From positions 30,279-62,278 of the forward strand of contig JAPZAR010000021.1 in NCBI GenBank assembly GCA_027460535.1: DNA of 32,000 nucleotides, written 5' to 3'. The stretch is from Candidatus Methanoperedens sp. Its GTDB lineage: Archaea > Halobacteriota > Methanosarcinia > Methanosarcinales > Methanoperedenaceae. A program made the translations under genes and the position numbers. A model generated the notes under the pieces. It did no database searches. It saw only the letters and a program-made list of their open reading frames with translations, and was not told the DNA's origin. Every line of letters begins with the position of its first letter. Within the stretch, counting starts at the first letter, position 1. Shown here piece by piece: positions 835-31,901 of the stretch.

Positions 835-1365
835 TTAGCGCTTCTCGTATTCGAAATAACTGCAGGCATTATCGGTGCATCTGATTATTTTGCCTTTTAC
901 AGTATTTTTTATTATTTCAAGCTCGATAGCGCTTGGTTCCGCTATTCCCGGGACTGTGGCGCTGCCTGGCGAAATGAGAAGAACATCGGTTTTTTCAACA
1001 ATGGGGTGGTGGAAATGCCCGAATATCAGAACGTCAACGTTCATCTCTTTTGCAAGGTACCGGAGCCCGTCAGTACTCTCGGAGGTCAGCTGCCCTTTGT
1101 GTATGATGCCGACTCTTACACCTTCCACTTTTATGACCCTGCGCTCCGGGAGGAAATCCACGAGAAGGGGACTGTCCATGTCTCCATGGACCGCTATAAG
1201 TTTCCCCAGACCGCGAAGTTCGTTGTAGCATTCAAGGGTTTCAAAATCCCCTGCATGGATGATGATGCTTGAGCACCTGATGATAGAGATCAGTTCCCCG
1301 GGAAGCTGTGAGAGCAGGGACTGTCCGGGCTTGATATGCGTATCCGACAGGATGGAGATTTTCAT
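835..1365 (-). CDS. Calcineurin-like metallophosphoesterase, MJ0936/YfcE size class
   Basis: Motifs ILSDTHI, HAGDF, VHGDMD and IFGHFHHP are the metallophosphoesterase metal-ligand set. I moved the start to ATG at 1365 (MKISILSDTH); the ORF-track start at 1416 adds an unconserved 17-aa leader. Confidence 0.8.
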   Translation of the reverse strand: MKISILSDTHIKPGQSLLSQLPGELISIIRCSSIIIHAGDFETLECYNELRGLGKLIAVHGDMDSPLLVDFLPERRVIKVEGVRVGIIHKGQLTSESTDGLRYLAKEMNVDVLIFGHFHHPIVEKTDVLLISPGSATVPGIAEPSAIELEIIKNTVKGKIIRCTDNACSYFEYEKR

Positions 1366-15267: not shown

Positions 15268-18200
15268 CTAATATTCTACCTTCAAGCTCCCTATATCGGT
15301 CATCAACTCCAACAGCACAATGCCAGATGGTGTCACTTTCTGCTCCTTTTTCCCTTCAATCTTAACACTTATCTCGGTTTGATCTTTTTTCCCGCTAAAC
15401 TTTGCCTTGGCATCGAAGAGCTTCTTAACTTCGATCTCTTGCTCCAATTCATTGAGCAAGCCCTTCTCCTCAGTGTATTCCACCTGATCTCTGTTCATTG
15501 CTATGTTCGAAACTGTTCCAGCGTTGTACTGTGTGCTGATGACCTCTATTTCAGCTTCCTTGCCCTCTTTCTTGTGTCTTAAGATGAGTGTGAGCGAGTT
15601 GTTTGCAATATCCCTGAGGGCGTACTGTCTCCGTTCCCAGGCTTTTTCGTTCTGGTCTTTTTGCTCTTTCTTATCTTTATTTTCTTTCTTCGAAGGCAAT
15701 ATTATATAGTTTGTATCATTTCCAGTCTCGACGTTGTATACCCTGAAATCTTTCAAGGAGATGTCGAATCTTATTGCTGCTTCTGGAGGTGTCTTGTCAA
15801 TTTTGATCGTTTGGCTCTTAATCAATTCTACGTTGCCCGCATTATCTGTTGAGCAATAGTAAATCGTTGATATCCCTTCGCTGCTTATGTTGAACGGGGC
15901 AGTATATCGAATCCAGGTTGCATTATCCAGGCTATATTCAATCCAGTTCACGCCCGAACCACCTAGATTGTCCGTTGCCGTTAGATTCATCCGGACATCA
16001 GAAATGTACCAACCGTTATTGCCAATGCTTCCAGATAATACAGCAGTTGTTATTGGAGATACGGTATCAGAAGTGGCTATTTGTGGAATAGATGGGCCAC
16101 CGTCGTCTATGATTATGCCATTGGCTGTAAGGTCATCGTCTCCTAATCCTCCATCTGTGAGTGTTATTGTTATGGTGTTGCCATTGATGCTGCTGGGAAT
16201 AGTGTACCAATGAGTATTGTGGTTTTCTCCATATTTCCAGTAAGTTGTACCATCTGGCAGGTATTCTGGAAATGTCATTGTGAGAGTTATGCTGCCGCCA
16301 AGATTTATGCCTGTAATGTTGAATCTGAAAAGACCATAATAGAGATTTGCCTCAATTGGAGGTTGTTCAAGTATGGAATTCGGATCCACAGCTATCATAT
16401 CTTGAATAGTGCCTGCGCTTGATTGAAGGAACACGGTGCCTTTTCCGGTGATAGATTCAATATGGAATCCGGATGGTTCTATCACTGATAAACTTACACT
16501 TCCACTAACTTCTCCATTTCTTGCAGTTATTGTTGTTATTCCTGGTGAAAATGTATATGCAAAAAATATACCTTGACCCATATCAAATGTTCCCAAGCTT
16601 GAATTGCTGGAACTCCAAGTTACTATAGAGGTGATGTCATTCCCATTTTGATCCTTCGCAGTAAAGGAAATTGTATTACCCATAGCAACTGATGGCATAG
16701 CTGGTGAAATAGTTATAGTTGTGATTGATGATGAAACAGTCACATTTACACCTTCTGTTAAACTACCACTTCGTGCTGTTATTATTGCTGTTCCTGTTCC
16801 AGTTGCTGTAAACTTTGCTCCTGAATAAAATGTGTCTGTAATCGGTTCAATTGTGCCCACTGTTGGATCACTGATGATCCACGTTACAGGTAATTCCATG
16901 ATAACTCCAAATTGATCTTTGGGCATAGCGAAAAAATCCCAATTATAACCCGCAAAAATCACTCCATAATCTTGAACCTCTTCGGTGGTGGGAGAAAGTG
17001 TTAAAGATGTTAATTTTTGTTCATACGGCATTTTAAATGATACCAACGGATATCTATCAACATCAGAACCCTCTTGAATATTATAACTTGAATCACATAT
17101 GTTATTATCGTCTGAATCAATACAACCTTCAAAATTTTCATCAAAATTACTATAATGATTACCTATATTCTCGTAATCCCACTGATTCTGACCATTGCTA
17201 TAAACTAGATCCTTTAAGAAATTATTCTGATAAATTACATTGTTATTGCTGGAATCCAAATAGATACCTGCCTCATTTGCCGATAATATATTTTTAAATA
17301 TCATATTCTCTATTGAATTATAAAAATAAATACCGTCACCATTTGAAATTACAATATTTTCTGATATAAGGTTATAATCAGAGCCGTCCAAAAAAATACC
17401 TTCACGATTATTCGAGTAAACATTCCCGTTGATGAGGTTATTTCTTGAAGATTTGAGGTAAACTCCATTTTGGTTTGAAAATATATCATTATTTGTAATC
17501 TTGTTATTATTCGAATTTACCTTAATTCCTGCATAATTGAAATCATAATTAACTTCCGAGTTTGTAACTCCAAATCCTTCAAGTGTTATTCCATTTGAGG
17601 ATATTGTAATTGGACTACCAAACCCCCCAGCATCTACTATTGGCTTCCCACTGCCGGTATCAACTCCTTTTAATATAAGTTCAGGAATATTCACGTCCGC
17701 GTTTTCATGATAAGTACCGCTGTTAACAAGGATTGTATCCCCAGGATATGCTGCATCGAGAGCATCTTGGATTCTGGTATAATCACAATCACTGGGGCAA
17801 ACTGTGCGCGTAATTGGAGTTGGTATCACAGGTGTTGTGGGTAATACCAATGAAACCAATGGATACCTATCCACATTATTTGGATCCAAAGGATTGTTTC
17901 CGCTTGGAATATTATAGCTTGAATCACATATGTTATTGGAATCAGAATCAATACAACCTTCAAAATTTTCATCAAAATTGCTGTAATGATTTCCAATAAT
18001 TCCATTATCCCAATTATTATTTGATAACCCATAGTTGTCAATGGCGTTTTCACTGTTACCAAAAAAATTGTTCTGATAGATATTATTGCTATTGCTTAGT
18101 AATATTATGCCCCCCATCTGGCAACATTCCAATCTTCTTAAACCATTTAGATAGACATTATTACCCGTAATGATATTTCCTTCTTGTGAATATGCACCTC

Positions 18201-21200
18201 CTCCAACAAAAAGTCCCATATTATTTAAATAAATATTATTGTTTGAAATAATATTATTGTTAGGACTTGAATGAGTTAAAATGCCAATACCATTGGAGAA
18301 AACATTATTATTTGAAATGTAGTTATTTGTTGTAGCTATATTTATTCCTGCATTGAAGTCAGCTTCGTATTCACCACCGCTATAAAAAAATAATTCACCA
18401 CCACTATTGCTTGCATTAAATCCTTCAAGAGTAATTCCATTAGCAGAAAGTTTGATCGCACTACCAGTGCCACCAGCATCTACAATCGGCATTGTACCAT
18501 CTGTTTTCTGACCCCGAAGGGTGAGTTGTTTGTTGATATCCACATTTTCTTGATACGTTCCACTATGCACTAAAATCATATCACCAATGTTCGCTGCATC
18601 AATAGCCGCTTGAATTCCGTTGTAATTGCAATTATTTTGGCAGACAGTAAGTGTCGCAGGATTCGGATTGGGCGACCCTATTACAAGATTTATGTTTGTC
18701 GTTTTTGTCTCTCCACCACCTGTTCCAACAATGACTACTGTATAAGATCCTCGTGGTGTTGTATTTGATGTAGTGATAGTTACTCTAGTAGCTTCATTAA
18801 GCATTGCCGGATTCTGAGAAAATTTACAGGAAGTTCCTTCCGGTAATCCGGAACAGCTAAGCATAACAGGTGTAACAAAACTTCCTTGACTGATGAGATC
18901 AATTAATAGTGACATAAAACCACCAATTGCAACAGACTGAGATGGTGATTCATAAAGTGAAAGAGTGAACGTTGGATCGTTGTCCAGAACTTGGTAATAT
19001 TCCTCGTGCACCTCATTTCCATTAGCATCTTTCCATGTCTTAGAAAGATCATAACTATCATAACCCCAACTATACCAGCTACCTGAACCATCATCTGCGG
19101 TAACATACATTGGAAATGAACTTAATCTGTCACTTGGACTGGTTAACTTTTTCGACATCCATGTATATTCTTGTTGGGAATCACAATATGAACTATCTTT
19201 ATTTGGATCATAAGAGTAATCCCTTGTGCAGTTATACTTTATACTTGAATCATAATCCCTGCGGTCGCCGATATTTAAAATTTTATGTCCGGGGAGTTCA
19301 GGTGTCGCTCCAAATGACCACTGATAATAAGTTTCTCCGACTAATAAATAATATTCATCATATCCATCGCCGTCATAGTCTTTTATATGCCAGTTATTAG
19401 CACAATAAGGGCTATTAACTACAGTTTTAAGATAGTAGCCCACATCAGTATTAGAGAGATCTTTCGAAAAATCCACACAATATGAAGGAATGCCCTGAAT
19501 ACTTGATCTTGTACTGAACTGCCAGCTATATGGTGACTGCAAATTATTATTTGCCAAATCCTTAACATTTGTTCCCACCGAAACAATATACGTTGCGTCA
19601 TAATCAAGGTCTGAACTTGGAGTATAAGTCATGGTGTTGCTGTTCCAGTAAAAGCTTCCTGCAGTTGAAGGAGATATTGAAAAAGACGATTCGGCAGATG
19701 CATGATCTATTGCTTCACTGAAGGTGATGGTTATTGATGTATTTGCAGGAATATTGCTACCAGTCGGAGTATTATAAGTGATTGTCGGTGGAGTGGTGTC
19801 TGTTGGTGGAGGTTGTCCTAACGATGCGCTAAAATCCATATGATCGCTATTATCAGCGGCATCGTTTGCCCAGTCGCTCCAGAAATAACCATTGTAAGCT
19901 CTTACATGCCAATGGTAATGCTTTCCATCAACTAAGCCCCCATTTATATATTCTGCAATTGAAGGTGTAATTTGAGAAGACTCTGGATTCGAAATAGTCT
20001 TTTCAAGAACAATCTTGGTGCCGTCAGTTTTCAAGCCGCTATCCTCCCAAACTCTAATTTGATAAGCTTTGATTTTATTTAAGGATATGTCACTTAAAGG
20101 AGGCCACCATCGATACGTGGGTGTTAAAGTATTGACATGAGAATCCATCTCTGGCTCTTGTAATATTGGTGTTTTTGGTATAAGATTTATCCTTCCTTTC
20201 CCATCCAATAGTGTTTCTTTTTCATCCTCGGTCAGGACGTCGATTGCTGTATCTTTCAGGATAGTTTCTGCTGTTGGTGCATTATTTCCCATCCTCTGTA
20301 AAAGTAAAAGTGCTCCAGCAACATGGGGCGCAGCAAAAGAACTTCCAGATATATAATTTTCATAGCCATTTTCCGAAGTATTTAATGTGTATATACTCTT
20401 ACCTGGTGCTGCAAAATCTGGTTTCGCATAATCTGGGGGTACGATTTTAGGATTTTGTGGGCTGCCACCCAAAAATAAGTAATCATTAAAATCTTGAATA
20501 GAAGAGACACTAATTACCTTTACACCAGTTGATGGTGATATAGGATACTTATCATCTTTATTTCCTGCTGCGGCAACGAAACTTGTATCACTGTCTACTT
20601 TATCTGATGCATACTGAGCGATCTCGTCATAACAGCTACCCTGAAAAGAAGGGCAAATTGAGGTGACAATAACATTTGCACCATTATCTACGGCAAAATT
20701 AATTCCAGCTTCATAATCAATAAGACCCGTAATACCCTCAGCAGGCTTTATAATAATGAATTTTGCTTTTGGTGCAATTTCCCAAATAATCCCTGCAATT
20801 CCAGTTCCATGTCCTTCACTATCATCAATACCGTAAATTGCATATGGACCACGAGAGGCAATTATATTTATTTTCCAATCAACAGGATTATTTTTACCGT
20901 CCATATTCACAATTGGGTGATCTATATCTATCCCTGAATCAATTATGGCTACAATTTTGCCCTCACCATAATTTCCCCATCCCCTTTCATGCATTTTGTC
21001 AAACCCAATATTTTCAATTCCCCAATTTTCTTTATTCATACAATCCCAATATGATTTTGGGTCGTTGTTTATTAAATCTGTACCGCATCTTATATCAGCA
21101 GCACTCGCTCCGCCAGCCAGCAATAAGATTGCCAGTATTGTTATCCCAAAAACTATCCTAAGGACACGCTCTTTATTCTTTTTATTCTTAAACATCTTTC

Positions 21201-21204
21201 CCAC
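15268..21204 (-). CDS. Giant secreted multidomain protein: signal peptide, subtilisin-like S8 protease, Ig-like domains, two right-handed beta-helix modules, Big_2-like repeats, Lys/Glu-rich C-terminus
   Basis: N-terminal basic stretch plus hydrophobic stretch ending GGASA. S8 triad motifs are IIDSGID (D89), GHGTG (H132) and SGSSFAAPHVAG (S289), at nt about 20200-20982. There is an SbsA-type Ig domain (TITYNTP...ITITFSEAID) and two NosD/PbH1-like beta-helix modules rich in SNN/NNN turns. Big_2-like segments follow (ISPAMPSVAMGNTISFTAKDQNGN), then an LTDGGLGDDDLTANGIIIDDGGPS segment and a GWY...TATDNLGGSGV beta-barrel segment. Confidence 0.9.
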   Translation of the reverse strand: MGKMFKNKKNKERVLRIVFGITILAILLLAGGASAADIRCGTDLINNDPKSYWDCMNKENWGIENIGFDKMHERGWGNYGEGKIVAIIDSGIDIDHPIVNMDGKNNPVDWKINIIASRGPYAIYGIDDSEGHGTGIAGIIWEIAPKAKFIIIKPAEGITGLIDYEAGINFAVDNGANVIVTSICPSFQGSCYDEIAQYASDKVDSDTSFVAAAGNKDDKYPISPSTGVKVISVSSIQDFNDYLFLGGSPQNPKIVPPDYAKPDFAAPGKSIYTLNTSENGYENYISGSSFAAPHVAGALLLLQRMGNNAPTAETILKDTAIDVLTEDEKETLLDGKGRINLIPKTPILQEPEMDSHVNTLTPTYRWWPPLSDISLNKIKAYQIRVWEDSGLKTDGTKIVLEKTISNPESSQITPSIAEYINGGLVDGKHYHWHVRAYNGYFWSDWANDAADNSDHMDFSASLGQPPPTDTTPPTITYNTPTGSNIPANTSITITFSEAIDHASAESSFSISPSTAGSFYWNSNTMTYTPSSDLDYDATYIVSVGTNVKDLANNNLQSPYSWQFSTRSSIQGIPSYCVDFSKDLSNTDVGYYLKTVVNSPYCANNWHIKDYDGDGYDEYYLLVGETYYQWSFGATPELPGHKILNIGDRRDYDSSIKYNCTRDYSYDPNKDSSYCDSQQEYTWMSKKLTSPSDRLSSFPMYVTADDGSGSWYSWGYDSYDLSKTWKDANGNEVHEEYYQVLDNDPTFTLSLYESPSQSVAIGGFMSLLIDLISQGSFVTPVMLSCSGLPEGTSCKFSQNPAMLNEATRVTITTSNTTPRGSYTVVIVGTGGGETKTTNINLVIGSPNPNPATLTVCQNNCNYNGIQAAIDAANIGDMILVHSGTYQENVDINKQLTLRGQKTDGTMPIVDAGGTGSAIKLSANGITLEGFNASNSGGELFFYSGGEYEADFNAGINIATTNNYISNNNVFSNGIGILTHSSPNNNIISNNNIYLNNMGLFVGGGAYSQEGNIITGNNVYLNGLRRLECCQMGGIILLSNSNNIYQNNFFGNSENAIDNYGLSNNNWDNGIIGNHYSNFDENFEGCIDSDSNNICDSSYNIPSGNNPLDPNNVDRYPLVSLVLPTTPVIPTPITRTVCPSDCDYTRIQDALDAAYPGDTILVNSGTYHENADVNIPELILKGVDTGSGKPIVDAGGFGSPITISSNGITLEGFGVTNSEVNYDFNYAGIKVNSNNNKITNNDIFSNQNGVYLKSSRNNLINGNVYSNNREGIFLDGSDYNLISENIVISNGDGIYFYNSIENMIFKNILSANEAGIYLDSSNNNVIYQNNFLKDLVYSNGQNQWDYENIGNHYSNFDENFEGCIDSDDNNICDSSYNIQEGSDVDRYPLVSFKMPYEQKLTSLTLSPTTEEVQDYGVIFAGYNWDFFAMPKDQFGVIMELPVTWIISDPTVGTIEPITDTFYSGAKFTATGTGTAIITARSGSLTEGVNVTVSSSITTITISPAMPSVAMGNTISFTAKDQNGNDITSIVTWSSSNSSLGTFDMGQGIFFAYTFSPGITTITARNGEVSGSVSLSVIEPSGFHIESITGKGTVFLQSSAGTIQDMIAVDPNSILEQPPIEANLYYGLFRFNITGINLGGSITLTMTFPEYLPDGTTYWKYGENHNTHWYTIPSSINGNTITITLTDGGLGDDDLTANGIIIDDGGPSIPQIATSDTVSPITTAVLSGSIGNNGWYISDVRMNLTATDNLGGSGVNWIEYSLDNATWIRYTAPFNISSEGISTIYYCSTDNAGNVELIKSQTIKIDKTPPEAAIRFDISLKDFRVYNVETGNDTNYIILPSKKENKDKKEQKDQNEKAWERRQYALRDIANNSLTLILRHKKEGKEAEIEVISTQYNAGTVSNIAMNRDQVEYTEEKGLLNELEQEIEVKKLFDAKAKFSGKKDQTEISVKIEGKKEQKVTPSGIVLLELMTDIGSLKVEY
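17038..17811 (-). repeat. Intragenic module 2 (aa ~1132-1389): tandem duplicate of module 1
   Basis: It begins RTVCPSDCDYTRIQDALDAAYPGDTILVNSGTY and ends GNHYSNFDENFEGCIDSDDNNICDSSYNIQ...VDRYPLVS. Order and length match module 1. Confidence 0.8.
17851..18657 (-). repeat. Intragenic module 1 (aa ~850-1118): beta-helix plus Cys-containing tail
   Basis: It begins TLTVCQNNCNYNGIQAAIDAANIGDMILVHSGTY and ends GNHYSNFDENFEGCIDSDSNNICDSSYNIP...VDRYPLVS. The tail (17908-17994) is near-identical at nucleotide level to 17077-17163. Confidence 0.8.
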
Positions 21205-24410: not shown

Positions 24411-24659
24411 ATGAAAGCGGAAAAATTGCTTGAACGCATAACTCTTAACCCAGATGTTATGACAGGAAAACCTGTAATCAAGGGGACAAGACTTACGGTG
24501 CAGTTTATCGTGGGATTATTAGCGCATGGCGCTTCTGTGGAGGAAATCCTTGAAGAATACAAAGGATTAACCAGGGAAGATATAAGAGCATGTTTGCTTT
24601 TTGCAACAGAATCCCTTGAAAACATTACATTTATGCCTTTGACAGCAGAGGCTTGTTAG
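24411..24659 (+). CDS. DUF433 domain protein (antitoxin-like HTH) embedded in the R-M operon
   Basis: 82 aa. PDVMTGKPVIKGTRLTVQFIVGLLAHGASVEEILEEYKGLTREDIRACLLFA is the characteristic DUF433 core. Confidence 0.8.
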   Translation: MKAEKLLERITLNPDVMTGKPVIKGTRLTVQFIVGLLAHGASVEEILEEYKGLTREDIRACLLFATESLENITFMPLTAEAC

Positions 24660-24669
24660 ATGCGGTTTT

Positions 24670-27612
24670 TTGAAAAAGAAAATGACAGCGCCCAAACCAA
24701 CAGAACATAAAAGCGTCCAAGCTCGTATACTAAAATATGCACAGGAAATCGGCTGGAGGTATGTCTCGCAAAGCGAAGCCGAGCAGCGCAGAGGTTTTGA
24801 TCCATCCGGCGCTTCTCCGAGAGAGAAAGCCAAAAACGCTTCCCGCTTTTTTACCGATACTTTATTTGAAAAGGTAAAAGACTTTAATCCAAAGTTCAAA
24901 GACAGCAAAGAAGAACTCCTTCGCAAACTCAATTTGCCTTTGCCAACCATCGCGGGCAACCGGGATTTTTTACAGCATCTTCAGGGAGAAAAAACGTTCT
25001 TCAGCAAAGAGGAAAACCGTGAATTTAACCTTGTGCTGATAAACTATGGCGAGCCAGACAAAAATGTGTATGAAGTAACCGAAGAATATTATCTTTTCAA
25101 TGGGCAGTATGCCAATCGGGAGGATGTTGCATTTCTCATCAATGGCATTCCGGTTCTTGTAATCGAATGTAAAAACGCCACCAAAGACGAAGCCATTGCA
25201 ATAGGTATAGACCAGATCAGACGCTATCACCGTGAGACGCCGGAGTTTTTTTGTCCAGAGCAGATTTTCACAGCCACTGAAAGCATTGGTTTTTCGTATG
25301 GCGTAACATGGAACCTCATCAGAAGAAATATTTTTAACTGGAAAGAAGAAGAAATCGGCAATCTGGAAGTAAAAATTAAATCCTTCTGCGGCAGGCAGAA
25401 TATTCTTGATTACTTGAAAAAATTCATTATTTTTGCAGAGCAAAATGAAGAGCTGAATAAATACATTTTAGCTCAACACCAGAAAACAGCAGTAACAAAA
25501 GTATTAGAACGGGCAATCGACCCGAAAAAGACAAGAGGTTTAGTATGGCATACGCAGGGAAGCGGCAAAACCTTTACTATGATAAAAATAGCTGAACTGC
25601 TGTTTAAAGCCCCCGAAGCCGAAAAACCCACCATTCTCTTGTTGATCGACCGCAATGAACTGGAAGACCAGATGGCCAGAAATCTTGAATCGTTGGGTGT
25701 AAAAAATGTAGTACAGGCAGAGCATATAAGAGACTTGCAAAAATTGCTGAAAAATGATTATAGAGGAATAATAGTCAGTATGATGCATAAATTCCAGGAT
25801 ATGCCTGCTGATGTCAATCTTCGCAAAAACATTTATGTGCTGATTGATGAAGCGCACCGAACCACAGGAGGAGATTTAGGAACATATCTGATGGCTGCCG
25901 TCCCGAATGCTACTTTAATAGGATTTACAGGCACGCCGGTTGATAAAACAGTTCATGGTAAAGGAACATTCAAGACCTTTGGCCTTGAAGACGAATCTGG
26001 TTATCTGCATAAATATTCCATTGCAGAAAGCATTGAAGATTATACAACATTGCCCCTGTTTTATGGGATGGCTCCAAATGAGCTTTTAGTCCCCAGGGAT
26101 ATTTTGGAAAAAGAGTTTTTGAACCTGGCGGAAGCTTATGGGGTAAGCGACATCGAAGAATTGAATAAAATCCTGGAACGTGCTGTTAATACCCGCAACT
26201 TTTTGAAAGGAAAGGAACGGGTAGAAAAGGTGGCTGAATACGTGGCAAGTCATTACAAAGAAAATGTCGAGCCAATGGGCTATAAGGCATTTTTAGTTGG
26301 AGTTGACCGTCCAGCATGTGCCATGTATAAAAAGGCGTTAGATAAGTTTCTGCCCACGGAATATTCGGAAGTAGTTTACACCGGCAACAACAACGACACA
26401 GAAGACCTAAAGAAATATCACATTGACACTAAAAAAGAAAAGGAAATTAGAAAGAAGTTCACCAAAATCGGAGAACTGCCCAAGATCCTGATCGTTACGG
26501 AAAAACTTTTGACAGGTTTTGATGCACCGATTTTGTACGCCATGTATCTGGACAAACCAATGCGTGACCATACCCTTCTTCAAGCCATTGCAAGGGTAAA
26601 CAGACCATATGAGAACGAAGAAAAGGATATGAAAAAGCCTCATGGTTTTGTCCTGGACTTTGTAGGCATATTTGACAAACTTGAAAAAGCACTCGCATTT
26701 GATAGCAAAGAAATCAATTCGATAATAAAGGATATTCAACTGCTGAAACACCTGTTCAAGGCAAAGATGGAAGAAAAAGTTCCTCCTTACTTACAACTGA
26801 TTAAATTTGGTTTTAACGACAAAGACACAGATAATCTCATTGCATACTTTAGAGATAAATCCAAAAGAAAAGAATTTTTCAAATTATACAAAGAGGTGGA
26901 AATGCTATATGAAATCATTTCACCTGATAAATTCTTAAGACCATACATTGACAATTACACTACGCTTTCTGCTATTTACCAAATCGTAAGAAATGCCTAT
27001 GCAAAAAGAGTCCAGGTTGACAGGGAGTTCCAGAGAAAAACAAATGAATTGATCCAGAATAAAATAGGCATGAGCAATTTGCAGCAGGTTAATGAATTCT
27101 TTGAGATTAACGAAGAAACGATTAAAAAAATACAAGATACTCAGAAAAATGACAATACACGGGTAATCAACTTAGTAAAGAGTATTGAAAGAATTGCTGA
27201 AGAAGAATCTGATGACCCATTTCTAATTGGTTTGCAGGAAAGAGCTGCCCAAGTAGAAGAAAGCTATGAGGACAGGCAAATTACCACGCAGGAAGCATTA
27301 GAAGAAATCAGAAAGATTTATGAAGATGACATAAAACGGAAAAAAGAACAGGTAGAGAAGGGCTTTGATGGCCTAACTTTCTTCATTTACAGAACACTGC
27401 TCGACAAAGATTTCAAAAAGGCGGATGAAATAACCAAGCAAATTAAAGCAGAGTTTGTTAATAATCCGAACTGGAAATCAAGCGAAAAGGAATTGAGAGA
27501 TCTGAGAAAAGGAACATATTACGCTGTGCTTAGCGAAGAAGAGAATATTGACAGAGCTGCTGCAATTGTAGAAGATTTATTTAATCAGTTATTCAAAGCC
27601 TACAACTTATGA
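24670..27612 (+). CDS. hsdR: Type I restriction enzyme, restriction/translocase subunit R
   Basis: N-terminal PD-(D/E)xK nuclease region (DVAFLINGIPVLVIECKN), helicase motif I (WHTQGSGKTFTM), DEAH (LIDEAHRT) and motif VI (QAIARVNRP), then a long helical C-terminus. The ORF-track start is TTG at 24670; ATG at 24682 (MTAPKP) is an equally plausible start. Confidence 0.95.
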   Translation: MKKKMTAPKPTEHKSVQARILKYAQEIGWRYVSQSEAEQRRGFDPSGASPREKAKNASRFFTDTLFEKVKDFNPKFKDSKEELLRKLNLPLPTIAGNRDFLQHLQGEKTFFSKEENREFNLVLINYGEPDKNVYEVTEEYYLFNGQYANREDVAFLINGIPVLVIECKNATKDEAIAIGIDQIRRYHRETPEFFCPEQIFTATESIGFSYGVTWNLIRRNIFNWKEEEIGNLEVKIKSFCGRQNILDYLKKFIIFAEQNEELNKYILAQHQKTAVTKVLERAIDPKKTRGLVWHTQGSGKTFTMIKIAELLFKAPEAEKPTILLLIDRNELEDQMARNLESLGVKNVVQAEHIRDLQKLLKNDYRGIIVSMMHKFQDMPADVNLRKNIYVLIDEAHRTTGGDLGTYLMAAVPNATLIGFTGTPVDKTVHGKGTFKTFGLEDESGYLHKYSIAESIEDYTTLPLFYGMAPNELLVPRDILEKEFLNLAEAYGVSDIEELNKILERAVNTRNFLKGKERVEKVAEYVASHYKENVEPMGYKAFLVGVDRPACAMYKKALDKFLPTEYSEVVYTGNNNDTEDLKKYHIDTKKEKEIRKKFTKIGELPKILIVTEKLLTGFDAPILYAMYLDKPMRDHTLLQAIARVNRPYENEEKDMKKPHGFVLDFVGIFDKLEKALAFDSKEINSIIKDIQLLKHLFKAKMEEKVPPYLQLIKFGFNDKDTDNLIAYFRDKSKRKEFFKLYKEVEMLYEIISPDKFLRPYIDNYTTLSAIYQIVRNAYAKRVQVDREFQRKTNELIQNKIGMSNLQQVNEFFEINEETIKKIQDTQKNDNTRVINLVKSIERIAEEESDDPFLIGLQERAAQVEESYEDRQITTQEALEEIRKIYEDDIKRKKEQVEKGFDGLTFFIYRTLLDKDFKKADEITKQIKAEFVNNPNWKSSEKELRDLRKGTYYAVLSEEENIDRAAAIVEDLFNQLFKAYNL

Positions 27613-27935
27613 TTATGAGTAAATGGAACGATAAATCTGAATTCAAGGCAAGAGTAAAAGAGTTTGCCGGAAAAATGGATATTGAAGTAAAAGCACTTGC
27701 TATCAGACCTATGACAAACAAATGGGCTTCATGTTCTACAGATGGTAATTTGAATTTCAATAAAGAACTTCTGGACATGGACAAAGAAATTGGTGACTAC
27801 GTAATTGTGCATGAATTGTTGCATTTCAAGGTTCCCAATCATAGTAAACTTTGGAAAAGCTTAATGACTGCTTACCTGGGCGACTATGAGAAGTTAGAAA
27901 AGAAATTGAATAAAATAAAAATTGGAGAAAAATAG
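27609..27935 (+). CDS. Short YgjP-like (DUF45/M48-related) zinc metallopeptidase
   Basis: VIVHELLHFKVPNHSKLW is the HExxH...NHS signature of the DUF45/YgjP family often linked to type I R-M. The start overlaps the hsdR stop (ATGA at 27609-27612). At 108 aa it is shorter than typical family members. Confidence 0.7.
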   Translation: MIMSKWNDKSEFKARVKEFAGKMDIEVKALAIRPMTNKWASCSTDGNLNFNKELLDMDKEIGDYVIVHELLHFKVPNHSKLWKSLMTAYLGDYEKLEKKLNKIKIGEK

Positions 27936-27940
27936 AAACT

Positions 27941-28013
27941 GCCGCCCCCATCTTGTGCCAACCAGAGCCGGACAGGTGGGGAGAAGATATCGCAAACAGT
28001 GAATCGCATAACG
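27941..28013. repeat. GC-rich intergenic repeat, copy 0 (short form lacking the central core)
   Basis: It starts 6 nt after the ygjP-like stop. CCGCCCCCATCTTG (27942-27955) matches copy 1 at 30071-30085. GAGCCGGACAGGTGGGGAGAAGATATC (27965-27991) matches copy 2 at 30796-30821. The core GCAGACCCGGTGCGTGCGGCATGCG is absent. Confidence 0.75.
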
Positions 28014-28242
28014 GTATAATTTCTTGATAATATGTTCTTTCAAGATACATAAAAATAAATACTTTAGACAATATATAGATATAATAGATAAACAGAACTC
28101 ATTGGAGTTCATAAACCTCAAGGGCTAAATTGACAGGAATTGAGAACGATATCTTATTAAGGAAGATGTTGCATTTCGTAGAAAAACACATAGACGATTT
28201 ACCAGTAGCTACAAAGGATGTTAAGAAATTGAGGATTTAAAA

Positions 28243-28902
28243 ATGAAGAGATTATTATATATTCCAAATGAATCTTTGCCAAAAATTTCAAAATTTTTAT
28301 CATTAGAAAAAAAATCTATTGAAACTTTTATCAATATTTTAATTGATTCCGAGAAAAAAAGTATTGTTGATTTATATCTTTCTATCATGAATGAAATGAA
28401 TGTTTCAGATGATGATGCAGCAGCAATCTTTTCCACCTATAAATATTTGTTATTTGTTTTGGAAGAAAACAATTTAAAATTTTCCGACCTTATTCCAGAA
28501 ACAAAATATATTTTGGAAACTTCCAAGATTCCAGATTATAACAAAATAAGCAAGAATGTAGATGTTAATTCAGAACATTTTAATAATTTATTTTCTGCTG
28601 GAAGCATTGAAGAGAAATTTGCAAAAAAAGAATTTTTATCTTCCGAAACATTCAACTCAGTGGTGGATATCCATTCTATTTGTGATATACGACCTTTTTT
28701 TAATGAAGAAAGAAATGAAATTTTGGACTTTCTAAATAGTATATATATCGAATTTACGGTTCAGGATTATGCGGATAATATTAAAATAATTCCACTGTCT
28801 TTTGACGATGAAGCTTTTGAAGACCTAATCAAAGAAATTGATAATATTAAAAAGAAAAAAGAGGTTATCAATAAGAAAATATCCAAATGGAGAAAGATTT
28901 GA
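28243..28902 (+). CDS. Hypothetical protein A of three-gene cassette (219 aa, acidic, Lys-rich tail)
   Basis: ATG is preceded by GAGG at 28231-28234. The ORF is long for such AT-rich DNA. Its stop TGA (28900-28902) directly abuts the next ATG. No recognisable motif. Confidence 0.7.
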   Translation: MKRLLYIPNESLPKISKFLSLEKKSIETFINILIDSEKKSIVDLYLSIMNEMNVSDDDAAAIFSTYKYLLFVLEENNLKFSDLIPETKYILETSKIPDYNKISKNVDVNSEHFNNLFSAGSIEEKFAKKEFLSSETFNSVVDIHSICDIRPFFNEERNEILDFLNSIYIEFTVQDYADNIKIIPLSFDDEAFEDLIKEIDNIKKKKEVINKKISKWRKI

Positions 28903-29409
28903 ATGTTTAATACCCAAATTATTAATAGAAAGTTTTCAATCATCCGTGATATAAATTCATATCGGGCATCTCCAGCAAAATACAAACAAATGATACATTC
29001 AGGGAAATCTCACTTGGATAATGTTTATGATCCTTTAAATCCTGTAATAAGAATTGATAGAGGTAAAATTCGTTCTGGACGACATGCTGAAATTCATAAT
29101 CGAAGGGCTCGACCTATTGATTTCAAGAAAAAAAAGTTAAGAGTCAGGGTTTGCCCGGATATTAATAACTTAACCATTGGTGATTCCTTCAATGATTTTT
29201 ATTCTCCAGTCAATTTTAATATAAAAAAATATATAACAAAATTAGAAACAAAACATTCAGTTGATGATATAACCACTTTGGGCAGTACAACCCATGAAGA
29301 AAATTTAGAATATGATGTTTTTATTCAGATGCCTCCCATAAAAAAATGGACCGCACGGGTAAAAATAAAAAGTATAGAAAACGCAAAAATGAATATAGTG
29401 GAACCATAA
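28903..29409 (+). CDS. Hypothetical protein B of three-gene cassette (168 aa, basic)
   Basis: The start abuts the upstream stop (TGAATG) and GGAGA lies at 28888-28892. There is a basic patch (RSGRHAEIHNRRARPIDFKKKKLRVRV). No recognisable family. Confidence 0.7.
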   Translation: MFNTQIINRKFSIIRDINSYRASPAKYKQMIHSGKSHLDNVYDPLNPVIRIDRGKIRSGRHAEIHNRRARPIDFKKKKLRVRVCPDINNLTIGDSFNDFYSPVNFNIKKYITKLETKHSVDDITTLGSTTHEENLEYDVFIQMPPIKKWTARVKIKSIENAKMNIVEP

Positions 29410-29415
29410 TGATAT

Positions 29416-29946
29416 ATGGCGATTGAATATCCTTGGTACGAGGTTGTAAATTGTGATGCTGATTTAATGCAAGGTGACTTTATAAAAGGTTGTCCTATAA
29501 TTATTCCCCCTTCAGAGATACAAGAGGAAGAAGAATTTGAAGCTCGTATTCTTAAATATAATGTAATCATTTTGAGCCAATCCTGCGATATTGCAAATAA
29601 GAAAATCGATCTGGTTCTTCTTTGTCCATTCTGGCCCCTTGAAGATTTAGAGAAACAAAGTACTTTTTTTAAAAGTAGCGATGGGAAAGAAGAATTAAGA
29701 CGTGGAAATGTTACAGGATATCATTTATTAAATAAATGTGGGCTAAAAGGGTTCAAAATGGCTTATCAGGTCGTTGATTTTCGTAATATTTATAGTGTTT
29801 CTTTAGAATTTCTTTCTGATCTGACTATAAAGAAAGGTGAAAGATTGCGTTTATTACCCCCTTATAGAGAGCATCTATCTCAAAGCTTTGCAAGATTCTT
29901 TATGAGAGTAGGCCTCCCTGTAGATATACCTGCATTTAAAAAATAA
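29416..29946 (+). CDS. Hypothetical protein C of three-gene cassette (176 aa, Cys-containing, LSQSCD motif)
   Basis: It starts 6 nt after the B stop. Distinctive strings are LMQGDFIKGCPIIIP, VIILSQSCDIANKKIDLVLLCPFWP and LLPPYREHLSQSFARFFMRVGLP. I cannot name a family. Confidence 0.7.
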   Translation: MAIEYPWYEVVNCDADLMQGDFIKGCPIIIPPSEIQEEEEFEARILKYNVIILSQSCDIANKKIDLVLLCPFWPLEDLEKQSTFFKSSDGKEELRRGNVTGYHLLNKCGLKGFKMAYQVVDFRNIYSVSLEFLSDLTIKKGERLRLLPPYREHLSQSFARFFMRVGLPVDIPAFKK

Positions 29947-30050: not shown

Positions 30051-30180
30051 GTTGCTCCGCCCTCATCACCCCGCCCCCCATCTTGCTCCCTACTCCCTCC
30101 CTGCTTGCAGACCCGGTGCCTGCGGCATGCGCGGAGCCCGGAAAGGTGCGGAGAACACGATCAAATGCGGTGCGCCCAAC
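30051..30180. repeat. GC-rich intergenic repeat, copy 1 (long form, ~130 bp)
   Basis: It contains the core GCAGACCCGGTGCCTGCGGCATGCG (30107-30131), followed by AGGTGCGGAGAACACGATCAAATGCGGTGCGCCCAAC. It lies between the three-gene cassette and the first TA pair. Confidence 0.85.
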
Positions 30181-30216: not shown

Positions 30217-30483
30217 TTATTTATAAACATCTCCTCTAAGATCAACCCTATGGATCAGGATAACCTTTTGTTCCCAGATAACTTCGTAAACAATTCTGAA
30301 CTTCCCTTTACGGATACGATACTTATTCTTTTCACCTCTTAGTTTGGTGATATCAAGGGATTTTATGGGAACCGGGTCTTCTTTCAGGACAAGCATTGCC
30401 TCTTTGAGGCGCGCCCTGTCATGTTTCTGCAGGGAAGAAATAAATTTCAAAGATTTGGCTTTGATATTTATTTCAAATGTCAT
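30217..30483 (-). CDS. RelE/ParE-family type II toxin
   Basis: 88 aa. KYRIRKGKFRIVYEVIWEQKVILIHRVDLRGDVYK is a typical RelE/ParE C-terminal core. The start overlaps the upstream antitoxin stop by 4 nt. Confidence 0.85.
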   Translation of the reverse strand: MTFEINIKAKSLKFISSLQKHDRARLKEAMLVLKEDPVPIKSLDITKLRGEKNKYRIRKGKFRIVYEVIWEQKVILIHRVDLRGDVYK

Positions 30484-30668
30484 GCATTCAATACCTTTAG
30501 TAATTCGGCTTCCGAAGCTATTCTATCCTTGCTCCTTATCGCCCTAAGGTCTTCGGCTTCAGGTTCTTCTTCCGGGATCAGCCTATCAACAAGTTTTGAA
30601 TATAAATTTGTGAGCATATCAAGGTCGGCGCGAATCTTTCTCAATTCAACCACTGTTTCGGTTACCAT
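30480..30668 (-). CDS. Putative antitoxin partner of the RelE/ParE toxin (family unassigned)
   Basis: 62-aa acidic ORF directly upstream of and overlapping the toxin gene, which is the canonical type II TA arrangement. Confidence 0.65.
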   Translation of the reverse strand: MVTETVVELRKIRADLDMLTNLYSKLVDRLIPEEEPEAEDLRAIRSKDRIASEAELLKVLNA

Positions 30669-30740: not shown

Positions 30741-30844
30741 TGCGCCTCACCCCGCCCCCTCCCCGTTTGCTGATCCGGTGCGTGCGGCATGCGGGGAGCC
30801 AGGACAGGTGGAGAACATATCTCGACCAAATGCGGGCGCCCAAC
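30741..30844. repeat. GC-rich intergenic repeat, copy 2 (~104 bp)
   Basis: The core is GCTGATCCGGTGCGTGCGGCATGCG (30768-30792), followed by GGGGAGCCAGGACAGGTGGAGAACATATC...AAATGCGGGCGCCCAAC. It lies between the two TA pairs. Confidence 0.85.
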
Positions 30845-30914: not shown

Positions 30915-31202
30915 TTACTTATATGCATCTCCTCTATGCTGGACTGAAGTTATCCTGACTTTCCTTGGATCATTATCCACAGAATAAAGAACCCTGTACT
31001 TGCCAATCCTTAATCTGTAGGTATTATCCGGGTATCCTTCCATCGGCTTAACATCAAAACCTGATCTTGGTTGAACAGGATTCTTCTCAAATTCATCAAG
31101 TAATTTTAGAAATTTCTCAACAACGTATTTTGGGACTTTTTCTAAATCTTTCTCAACCCGTTCATCGATAAGAACTTCGTATGGAGTTGTGTTTCTGCTC
31201 AC
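30915..31202 (-). CDS. RelE/ParE-family type II toxin
   Basis: 95 aa. [35 protein letters not shown] is a typical RelE/ParE core. It lies 5 nt downstream of its antitoxin. Confidence 0.85.
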
Positions 31203-31207
31203 TCATA

Positions 31208-31438
31208 TCAACTTCCACTTGAAACTCTTTTCCTCATTCGAGATTTAAAATCTTCTTTTGATATCCCTTTAAAATCAGCAAGGCGGCGATAATGTTCTTG
31301 GATATGTTCCGCGCTTATATCTTCGATTGATACCTTATTCATGAGCATATTCAGGACATCATCAAAAGTCAAGTCACCAAACTTATAATCCGATAGCCTT
31401 TCTTTAGTTTTCTCATTTATTGTAATAGTCGTTGGCAT
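31208..31438 (-). CDS. Putative antitoxin, archaeal VapB-like/PF02697-like N-terminus
   Basis: 76 aa. MPTTITINEKTKERLSDYKFGDLTFDDVLNMLM resembles the TITIxExxxxxL...SFsDvI pattern of archaeal putative antitoxins. It sits directly upstream of the toxin. Confidence 0.65.
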   Translation of the reverse strand: MPTTITINEKTKERLSDYKFGDLTFDDVLNMLMNKVSIEDISAEHIQEHYRRLADFKGISKEDFKSRMRKRVSSGS

Positions 31439-31539: not shown

Positions 31540-31622
31540 GTTGCGCCCACCTCCCCGCTGGCAGACCCGGTGCGTGCGGCATGCGTGGGAACAGGTGCGG
31601 GGAACACGATCAAAATGTGAAC
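31540..31622. repeat. GC-rich intergenic repeat, copy 3 (~83 bp)
   Basis: GTTGCGCCCACCTCCCCGCTG is followed by the core GCAGACCCGGTGCGTGCGGCATGCG (31561-31585), then TGGGAACAGGTGCGGGGAACACGATCAAAATGTGAAC. Confidence 0.85.
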
Positions 31623-31628
31623 TTTAAT

Positions 31629-31644
31629 ATATGTTTAAACATAT
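31629..31644. promoter_or_regulatory. Perfect 16-bp palindrome ATATGTTTAAACATAT upstream of the VapB-like gene (possible operator/promoter)
   Basis: It ends 8 nt before ATG 31653. The half-site ATATGTTTA recurs immediately afterwards at 31641-31649, overlapping the palindrome's right end. Confidence 0.4.
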
Positions 31645-31652
31645 GTTTACTT

Positions 31653-31901
31653 ATGACAGCCAAGACGATAACCATCCGCGAAGATATTTACAAAATGCTC
31701 CTCTCGATAAAGGGAGCAAACGAGAGCTTCAGCGATCTTTTTGAACGGCTCATAAAATCCCGAAAAAATATTGATAAACTAAAAGAATTGAGAGGCTCTG
31801 TTGAATTCAGGAATAAAGAAACTCTTTTGAAAGAGTTATCTAATAAAAGGAAGGAGATTATTTACCCAACTTTACCCCTATCCTCTGACAACAAAATCTA
31901 A
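31653..31901 (+). CDS. VapB-like putative antitoxin (PF02697-like)
   Basis: MTAKTITIREDIYKMLLSIKGANESFSDLFERLIKS matches the archaeal putative-antitoxin pattern. I set the start to ATG 31653, because the ORF-track start at 31581 lies inside the GC-rich repeat. No PIN/VapC gene follows before the window ends. Confidence 0.65.
   Translation: MTAKTITIREDIYKMLLSIKGANESFSDLFERLIKSRKNIDKLKELRGSVEFRNKETLLKELSNKRKEIIYPTLPLSSDNKI

Follow-up and report, generated by a model that had tools for sequence, protein, structure and literature searches.

In the toxin-antitoxin (TA) systems MazEF and PemIK (Kis-Kid), the C-terminal tail of MazE and Kis binds the toxin. Tripartite TA systems, such as TAC with its SecB-like chaperone and omega-epsilon-zeta, possess a third protein, which acts on the antitoxin via a dedicated antitoxin extension and sets stability or expression, being itself neither toxin nor antitoxin. 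The subject of this report is a three-gene operon, A-B-C, located in 32,000 nt of DNA from Candidatus Methanoperedens sp. (contig JAPZAR010000021.1 of assembly GCA_027460535.1, positions 30,279 to 62,278; in the following, the window). The operon is best read as a mobile tripartite TA-like addiction or abortive-infection module, with a probability of about 0.55.

COMMD-like proteins, the class to which the product of gene A is assigned below, were described from bacteria and archaea in 2025-2026, and a eukaryotic trafficking complex was reported to descend from them. The prokaryotic proteins assemble into homo-oligomeric rings of eight or ten subunits (Liu et al., Nat Commun 2026, PMC13392464; PDB 9q6a). 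According to the same study, their function in Bacteria and Archaea is unknown, the sole genomic context noted is that of genes resembling the type VI secretion system (T6SS) in Myxococcota, and no complexes with the products of neighboring genes are predicted in other clades. The literature search found no paper that ties COMMD-like proteins to TA systems, and none that mentions TIGR04255, the family which most often takes the place of A in related loci.

The TA-like reading is based on the following observations. The order and sizes of B and C are typical of type II TA, and an upstream open reading frame (ORF) abuts C in 75 of the 75 C loci for which 1.3 kb or more of upstream sequence is available. 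Searches of the PDB and of BFVD with the predicted fold of C led to MazF, Kid and PemK. The trio is mobile and compositionally foreign, and is part of an array of ParE and VapB modules with a shared repeat. Relatives adjoin restriction-modification (R-M), HepT/MNT, AbiEii and AAA_15/AAA_21 genes, and a sister lineage has disrupted C alone. The product of A is assigned to the ring-forming COMMD-like class, distant relatives of which head short co-directional operons. Because the immediate neighbors in the array are all TA cassettes, addiction is favored at least as much as anti-virus defense. An earlier sequence-only reading of this DNA had proposed a defense or addiction system; an addiction role, or a putative defense role, is still the best reading. 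As a kind of system, TA or abortive-infection modules built on a MazF-fold toxin are already known. What the searched databases and literature do not describe is, most notably, the COMMD-like component, and further the protein families and the arrangement of three genes whose first member can be exchanged.

The operon resembles MazEF/PemIK in that a small upstream gene abuts a gene of about 175 codons (C), with gaps of 0-6 nt in the window operon, in that the predicted fold of the downstream product matches the MazF/Kid barrel, in that the upstream protein is conserved in its C-terminal tail, and in its location among other TA cassettes. It differs in the following properties: C is about 60 residues longer and has neither a Pfam PemK match nor profile similarity; the conserved site of C consists of SQxCD and an Arg-rich C-terminal helix, and the Arg/Thr pair of MazF is not evident; B lacks an AbrB or ribbon-helix-helix (RHH) DNA-binding domain; a third gene is present; and the cross-domain conservation of C is far higher. 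The likeness to TAC and omega-epsilon-zeta would lie in a third protein that acts on the antitoxin through an extension of the latter. In contrast to those systems, the third component is COMMD-like or TIGR04255, not a SecB-like chaperone or a repressor, and it is encoded first.

Operon organization and composition

The features of the locus are listed in Table 1. The sequence-only reading was correct in the positions and lengths of the three plus-strand ORFs (219, 168 and 176 aa) and in their tight packing: directly after the TGA of A (28900-28902) comes the ATG of B at 28903, and 6 nt (29410-29415) lie between the TAA of B and the ATG of C at 29416. Of two Shine-Dalgarno-like motifs, GAGG ahead of A is located where it was described, and GGAGA ahead of B is found at 28889-28893, one base off. 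The leader presumably holds the operon's own promoter. Scans with sigma-70 promoter and terminator models gave counts equal to those of shuffled sequence; these models are not applicable to archaea.

Table 1. Features of the A-B-C locus and of the repeat-delimited array (window positions unless a locus handle is given).
Feature	Position	Strand	Description
Gene A	28243-28902	+	219 aa, acidic; COMMD-like protein with HN-like domain and C-terminal COMM-like domain
Gene B	28903-29409	+	168 aa, basic; lineage-specific N-terminal region and conserved C-terminal tail
B tail	29290-29406	+	Residues 130-168, LEYDVFIQMPPIKKWTARVKIKSIENAKMNIVEP; common to genes directly upstream of C homologues
Gene C	29416-29946	+	176 aa; conserved unannotated family, PemK/MazF-like predicted fold
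Leader	28014-28242	+	AT-rich, 27.9% GC; moves with the operon; GAGG at 28231-28234
Left repeat	27941-28013		Short degenerate copy; agrees with full copies over ~20 nt at its left end and ~25 nt at its right end, center deleted
Right repeat	30051-30180 (core 30088-30148)		Full-length copy; right cassette boundary
ParE/RelE toxin and antitoxin	30217-30668	-	Pfam
Repeat copy	30750-30810		After first ParE/RelE cassette
ParE toxin and antitoxin	30915-31438	-	Pfam
Repeat copy	31542-31602		After second ParE cassette
VapB antitoxin	31581-31901	+	Pfam
Repeat in other genomes	L093 6995-7090; L006 ~1040-1100		L093: full-length, at left-copy position

The operon is AT-rich, as noticed before, with a GC content of 29.5% and a GC content at third codon positions (GC3) of about 22%. 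These values are well below the 41.8% GC of the window and the GC3 of 40-48% of hsdM and hsdR, and the block is therefore compositionally foreign. The earlier description of the proteins also stands. The pI is 4.95 for A (acidic) and 9.93 for B (basic), and C contains five cysteines and the motif ILSQSCDI. PADLOC, Pfam and NCBIfam gave no name to the system. Direct scans of A, B and C against Pfam, NCBIfam, PADLOC and PHROGs returned nothing significant except a match of C to phrog_4575, a family of unknown function (4.5e-8). The statement that none of the proteins can be placed holds only for such direct scans of Pfam, NCBIfam and PADLOC. Profiles and structure prediction place A and C; Foldseek on the predicted structures leads from A to COMMD proteins and from C to MazF/Kid.

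Protein C

Protein C belongs to a family of 3311 homologous 90%-identity clusters, with at least 565 loci in species-representative genomes. The hosts are mostly anaerobes and include Methanosarcinales, Asgard and DPANN archaea as well as Chloroflexota, Planctomycetota, Nitrospirota, Firmicutes and others. Homologues share 45-88% identity with the window C. Among 82 distinct sequences, the residues kept in 95% or more are Q19-G20-D21, C26-P27, S54-Q55-x-C57-D58, R95, G97, D121-F122 and R143-x-R145-LL-x-P149-Y150-R151-E152-H153 ... R160 ... M163-R164-VGLP. The resulting site pattern consists of QGD, CP, SQxCD and the Arg-rich C-terminal helix RxRLLxPYREHLxQxFARxFMRVGLP. Cysteines C57 and C26 are kept in 99% and 95%, C70 and C108 in 85-87%. 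A four-cysteine metal cluster is unsupported, as only C57 and C26 are near-invariant.

The AlphaFold2 (AF2) model of C has a predicted local distance difference test (pLDDT) score of 72. In a Foldseek search of the PDB with this model the top 11 matches were all MazF, EndoA or Kid, with a probability of 0.96-1.0 and a target-normalized template modeling (TM) score of 0.55-0.59. The top matches in BFVD were PemK-like phage proteins (probability 0.99-1.0). From these models C is predicted to have an SH3-like barrel fold of the MazF/CcdB type. No profile link between C and MazF was found, and the claim is therefore limited to this type of fold and does not make C a PemK family member. On the same comparison (hhalign, see below) C was rejected as a MazF at the level of sequence, and sequence-profile searches of the PDB with C gave no credible match.

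Protein B and the conserved B-C pair

The window B is 100% identical to a protein of a Candidatus Methanoperedens metagenome-assembled genome, and full-length B has only six relatives. Its last ~40 residues recur in the gene directly upstream of C homologues (alignment of 85 tails), with the C-terminal motif (E/H)xDhhV(R/K)MPPKKxY...IxKAxPxIVEP. A hidden Markov model (HMM) of the tail, built from TIGR04255-type loci only, matched the tail of the window B with E = 5.6e-15, the sole match among the 526 six-frame segments of the window. It also recognizes most other proteins directly upstream of C. B had been called unplaceable, too; its C-terminus in fact carries the family-defining tail. As for the suggested co-occurrence of the three genes, the recurrent unit is B-C, and the complete A-B-C trio does recur, only in a small archaeal clade.

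The N-terminal region of the window B (residues 1 to ~125) is lineage-specific and has a pI of 10.2. In A-type loci the N-termini of B are basic and unrelated to the others; one N-terminal cluster with 29 members occurs almost exclusively with TIGR04255. Several loci with B-C only encode tail-only B proteins of 66-88 aa, including the 70-78-aa forms of Methanothrix-type loci. As the tail is found upstream of C throughout and the N-termini are variable, B-C is the conserved core and the tail a modular handle. The tail probably binds C, and B would be an adaptor or antitoxin. A constant tail with varied N-termini fits a C handle joined to a variable docking or sensing part.

In two genomes the tail is fused to a recognizable domain, in both directly upstream of a C homologue: to a RES domain (PF08808, 4e-8) in a Chloroflexia metagenome-assembled genome (MAG; L035 367-1488), and to TPR repeats in a Planctomycetes MAG (L046 5000-5974). 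The fusions bear on a quite unlikely alternative with reversed polarity, in which the N-terminal domains of B would be effectors or sensors, C would be a conserved regulator, immunity protein or chaperone acting via the tail, and A or TIGR04255 a further regulator. RES is a known toxin fold, C is unusually conserved for a toxin, and the basic N-terminus of the window B could bind nucleic acid itself. On the other hand, the RES fusion is a single locus, and the many short B proteins have little beyond the tail and thus no room for an effector. Moreover, the predicted fold of C matches toxins and not known antitoxins, and it is C, not B, that is disrupted in the sister lineage.

Points against the toxin-antitoxin reading

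A number of observations weigh against C as a toxin and against A-B-C as a TA-like module. Only one of five AF2 models of C reached a pLDDT of 72, the rest 50-56, and the best Foldseek E-value against the PDB was 4e-3, with none at or below 1e-3. C has no Pfam match at E <= 1, including the PemK/MazF family PF02452, and alignment of the C family with MazF/EndoA/Kid sequences (confirmed against the PDB) gave an hhalign probability of 0.14%. The catalytic Arg/Thr pair of MazF seems not to be conserved in C, in a register set by eye only (GDF..., YNVIILSQ, LVLLCPFW); in this register Tyr/Lys and Cys-Pro of C stand at the places of the catalytic Arg (beta1-beta2 loop) and Thr/Ser (after beta3). 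The identity of C between archaea and bacteria, 60-70%, is far above that of typical TA toxins. B has no recognizable DNA-binding domain, so that autoregulation is unexplained, and the RES toxin domain on one B-position protein allows for the reversed polarity set out above. In PADLOC-DB 2.0.0 the sole match of the window proteins was A against PDC-M45C (E 0.014, 13 bits), and the canonical TIGR04255-B-C trio had no matches. Finally, C is carried by one contig of 2.9 million viral contigs; a phage-borne origin is unsupported.

Part of this evidence would also suit a non-conflict role, in which B-C is a non-toxic enzyme or regulatory complex (e.g., RNA- or redox-related, with the conserved Cys57) that has spread horizontally among anaerobes, with A or TIGR04255 as an assembly factor. 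This alternative is rather unlikely. The patchy spread of near-identical proteins over both domains, the foreign composition of the operon, its cassette behavior with different loci in sister genomes, the recurrent R-M, Abi, TA and transposase neighbors, and a first gene that is interchangeable or absent all speak against it. It agrees with the very high conservation of C, with its many conserved polar residues and near-invariant SQxCD cysteine, with the mostly anaerobic hosts, with the location of one B-C locus inside a fatty-acid synthesis operon, and with the lack of a match of the window proteins and of the canonical trio to any defense model.

The first gene: COMMD-like or TIGR04255

The first gene encodes a TIGR04255 protein in 41 of the 75 C loci and an A-type protein in three; the remaining 31 have none. 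An exhaustive profile search for A yielded a family of 136 representatives, all ~210-240 aa. In the AF2 model of A, helices extend over residues 9-139, strands over 169-174 and 180-185, and a long helix over 189-218; residues 123-176 are of low confidence, and the first COMM strand is not resolved. The predicted domains are a helical HN-like one (~1-120), modeled with confidence, and a COMM-like one at the C-terminus, which contains the motif CDIRPFF. The top Foldseek matches of A were a human COMMD ring (8p0w_J), the bacterial COMMD-like octamer (9q6a_B), further COMMD complexes (8esd_N, 8f2r_B) and the COMMD9 N-domain (4oe9), with E 0.05-3 and a probability of up to 0.93. PF07258 (COMM_domain) is matched by 11 of 50 members of the A family and HN-domain models by 4 of 50; the window A alone has no Pfam match. 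The profile of these 50 members matched 9q6a_A (COMMD-like MBK5214510) at 6.3e-12 (full length, residues 24-234), 9za1 at 5.8e-4 and human COMMD4 at 0.024. Sequence-profile searches of the PDB with the close A alignment or with TIGR04255 gave no credible match. On the grounds of the AF2/Foldseek results, the PF07258 matches and the profile match to 9q6a, A is assigned as a prokaryotic COMMD-like protein with HN and COMM architecture. In this architecture and in length it is like the published prokaryotic COMMD-like proteins (PMC13392464, 9q6a). It differs from them in that its gene is translationally packed with a TA-like pair in a mobile cassette, and the ring of A is a predicted one.

The majority form of the module, TIGR04255-B-C, which is unnamed, shares with A-B-C identical B-tail and C families, the three-gene layout and overlapping junctions. 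Its first gene differs and encodes a TIGR04255 protein of 257 aa, for which no relation to A could be detected (hhalign probability 0.57%), and the N-terminus of its B falls into a different cluster. The first genes of three canonical loci match TIGR04255 at 1e-38 to 1e-41 (NCBIfam). Neither A nor its relative at locus L017 has an NCBIfam match, including TIGR04255; on these results A was rejected as a divergent TIGR04255 protein.

Genes A, B and C are found together from 94% down to 26% identity of A, with abutting junctions kept (L017, L031, L093-L096, L102-L104, L107), and the N-termini of B co-vary with the type of the first gene. This co-occurrence argues against A being a mere passenger, functionally separate from B-C and located upstream of it within one mobile cassette, which is very unlikely. 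The abutment of the A stop to the B start and the placement of TIGR04255 at this very position, with overlapping junctions of the same kind, point in the same direction. Such a passenger would nevertheless agree with the small share of A-type first genes among the C loci, with the other neighbors of distant COMMD-like genes, and with the predictions of Liu et al. (PMC13392464) quoted above.

Distant COMMD-like genes (23-27% identity) occur without B-C, yet they head short co-directional operons. The partner sets are a 91-aa plus a PIN-like protein; a ~290-aa protein; a ~90-aa plus a ~190-aa protein; and a ~170-aa plus a ~250-aa protein. In the first of these (L109 557-1982), the COMMD-like gene is followed by the 91-aa ORF and the PIN-like protein (PF01850, 1.3e-4, 23.0 bits, cut-off 23.6). 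Here, a TA-like back end follows a COMMD-like gene for the second time. The COMMD-like genes thus follow a pattern, in few loci, in which the front component is conserved and the back end can be exchanged. It is tentatively suggested that prokaryotic COMMD-like rings recur at the front of small mobile conflict modules, where they may act as a scaffold or sensor over interchangeable effector pairs. These pairs might be the B-tail adaptor and MazF-fold toxin here, and a small protein with a PIN-like protein, or others, elsewhere. It is equally tentative that the unrelated TIGR04255 protein can also take the COMMD-like role in the B-C system.

Cassette array and mobility

A GC-rich direct repeat of ~100 nt separates all cassettes of the TA-rich array, which consists of A-B-C, two ParE pairs and VapB. 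A pattern search detected three strong copies in the window, where zero are expected by chance. The sequence-only reading had described two copies that bracket the operon. The repeat is real; the left copy is degenerate, and further copies come after each of the two TA cassettes that follow. The repeat thus belongs between the cassettes throughout the array and does not bracket this operon alone.

A-B-C is a mobile cassette, in agreement with the earlier view of a self-contained import. Another Methanoperedens genome (L093/L094) has the trio, together with its ~230-bp leader, at ~97% identity at an unrelated locus, despite different upstream genes; there the trio adjoins Trm112, HD and RecQ genes. 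On the left side, the identity between the window and this genome begins inside the left repeat. On the right side, a third Methanoperedens genome (L006), with a C that is 88% identical, shows identity from C to the repeat core, which stops after GGAGAA (~30158). As the homology breaks within the repeats, the repeats mark the cassette ends. The window locus itself is present in several assemblies (L087-L091).

In the sister Methanoperedens lineage (L093 8514-9056, L094 2360-2860, L095), C breaks off after LLPPY (codon ~150) and has lost its most conserved helix; A and B are undamaged. Three independent contigs of this lineage all end 20-90 bp past the break, which points to the insertion of a multicopy element. 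Disruption of C only is the decay pattern expected if the toxin is the costly part.

The array is like integron/attC arrays in that short cassettes, mostly TA, are each followed by a ~100-nt repeat, in the breakpoints within the repeat, and in the presence of a tyrosine recombinase nearby in a sister strain. It is unlike them in that the repeats show no hairpin folding on either strand (folding z-scores -0.9 to +1.1) and the recombinase is far under the IntI and XerA cut-offs. The resemblance is in logic only. The repeats were rejected as attC hairpins or a known RNA, as there is no hairpin signal and no match to an Rfam family. The GC-rich repeat may be the recombination site of a non-integron cassette system.

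The sister strain is represented by the window locus in GCA_027460495.1, where the sequence past the second ParE cassette differs from the window (L087 10770-12338). The divergent segment contains a fragmentary LigB-type dioxygenase and a tyrosine recombinase of 368 aa, and suggests an island border or cassette turnover. The recombinase scores 38 bits against TIGR02249 (cut-off 265) and is weakly XerA-like (85 bits, cut-off 220); as an integron integrase it was rejected.

Proposed mechanism and significance

In the favored TA-like mechanism, C would be the effector or toxin, a PemK/MazF fold with its own conserved site, and its target would most likely be nucleic acid or a translation component common to bacteria and archaea. 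B would be the cognate partner, translated just upstream of C. Its tail would hold C as the tails of MazE and Kis hold MazF and Kid, and its variable N-terminal part would dock to the product of the first gene. A would assemble into a homo-oligomeric ring that scaffolds, stabilizes or senses through B, and loss or disturbance of A or B would free C. In most relatives the role of the first gene would be taken by a TIGR04255 protein, or by nothing. The contacts among the three proteins, the toxicity of C and its neutralization by B, as well as the trigger, are inferred.

The pair of B tail and PemK/MazF-fold protein is a large cross-domain unannotated module with thousands of members, found neither in Pfam, NCBIfam and PADLOC nor in the searched literature. 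From it follows a TA hypothesis open to test, in which the 40-residue tail is a clear interaction handle. The sporadic annotation 'TIGR04255 family protein' gains its first conserved partners. The operonic link of a COMMD-like protein to a TA-like pair offers, for the first time, a possible function for the prokaryotic COMMD-like class, and it is directly testable. Should COMMD-like rings indeed be front components of conflict modules, the ancestral job of COMMD proteins would have been the regulated assembly of toxin/immunity complexes, before endosomal trafficking in eukaryotes. The repeat-delimited TA array in Methanoperedens may reveal non-integron cassette shuffling.

Neighboring genes

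The surroundings of the operon are as described in the sequence-only reading: hsdM, hsdS, hsdR and a YgjP-like ORF upstream, and two ParE/RelE pairs downstream. Pfam confirms these genes and places a VapB next. Relatives of C are repeatedly located beside R-M, Abi, TA and transposase genes. Those of the TIGR04255 type adjoin methyltransferase and CfrBI genes, a HepT/MNT pair, AbiEii, and Eco57I/MmeI-type R-M systems with AAA_15/AAA_21 ATPases.

In three contigs (L004 6730-7995, L125 9735-10922, L126 7371-8540), TIGR04255-B-C is followed, after a gap of ~210 bp, by an AAA_15/AAA_21 (DUF2813-type) ATPase. An Eco57I/MmeI-type R-M gene precedes the trio in the same three contigs. R-M, trio and ATPase may form a larger conserved defense island, or even a larger system. 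In a Nitrospirota MAG (L005 / L009 5684-6519), B-C without a first gene is located between fabG and acpP of the fatty-acid synthesis operon, with a Cas6 gene 2.4 kb downstream of B-C.

The YgjP-like ORF (27609-27935, 108 aa) overlaps the stop of hsdR. Of the 207 positions of the Pfam model it covers only 113-206, as a short form or as a remnant. Between hsdS and hsdR, at a place that corresponds to ~24411-24659 on the plus strand of the window, a small DUF433 gene (82 aa) is called in sister assemblies (L087 3509-3757). Members of DUF433 are frequently partners that resemble antitoxins. Just upstream of the R-M genes, a protein of 1978 aa with Peptidase_S8, NosD/beta-helix, Big_5 and Big_2 domains is encoded on the minus strand (window 15268-21204). 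It is probably a surface protease or adhesin.

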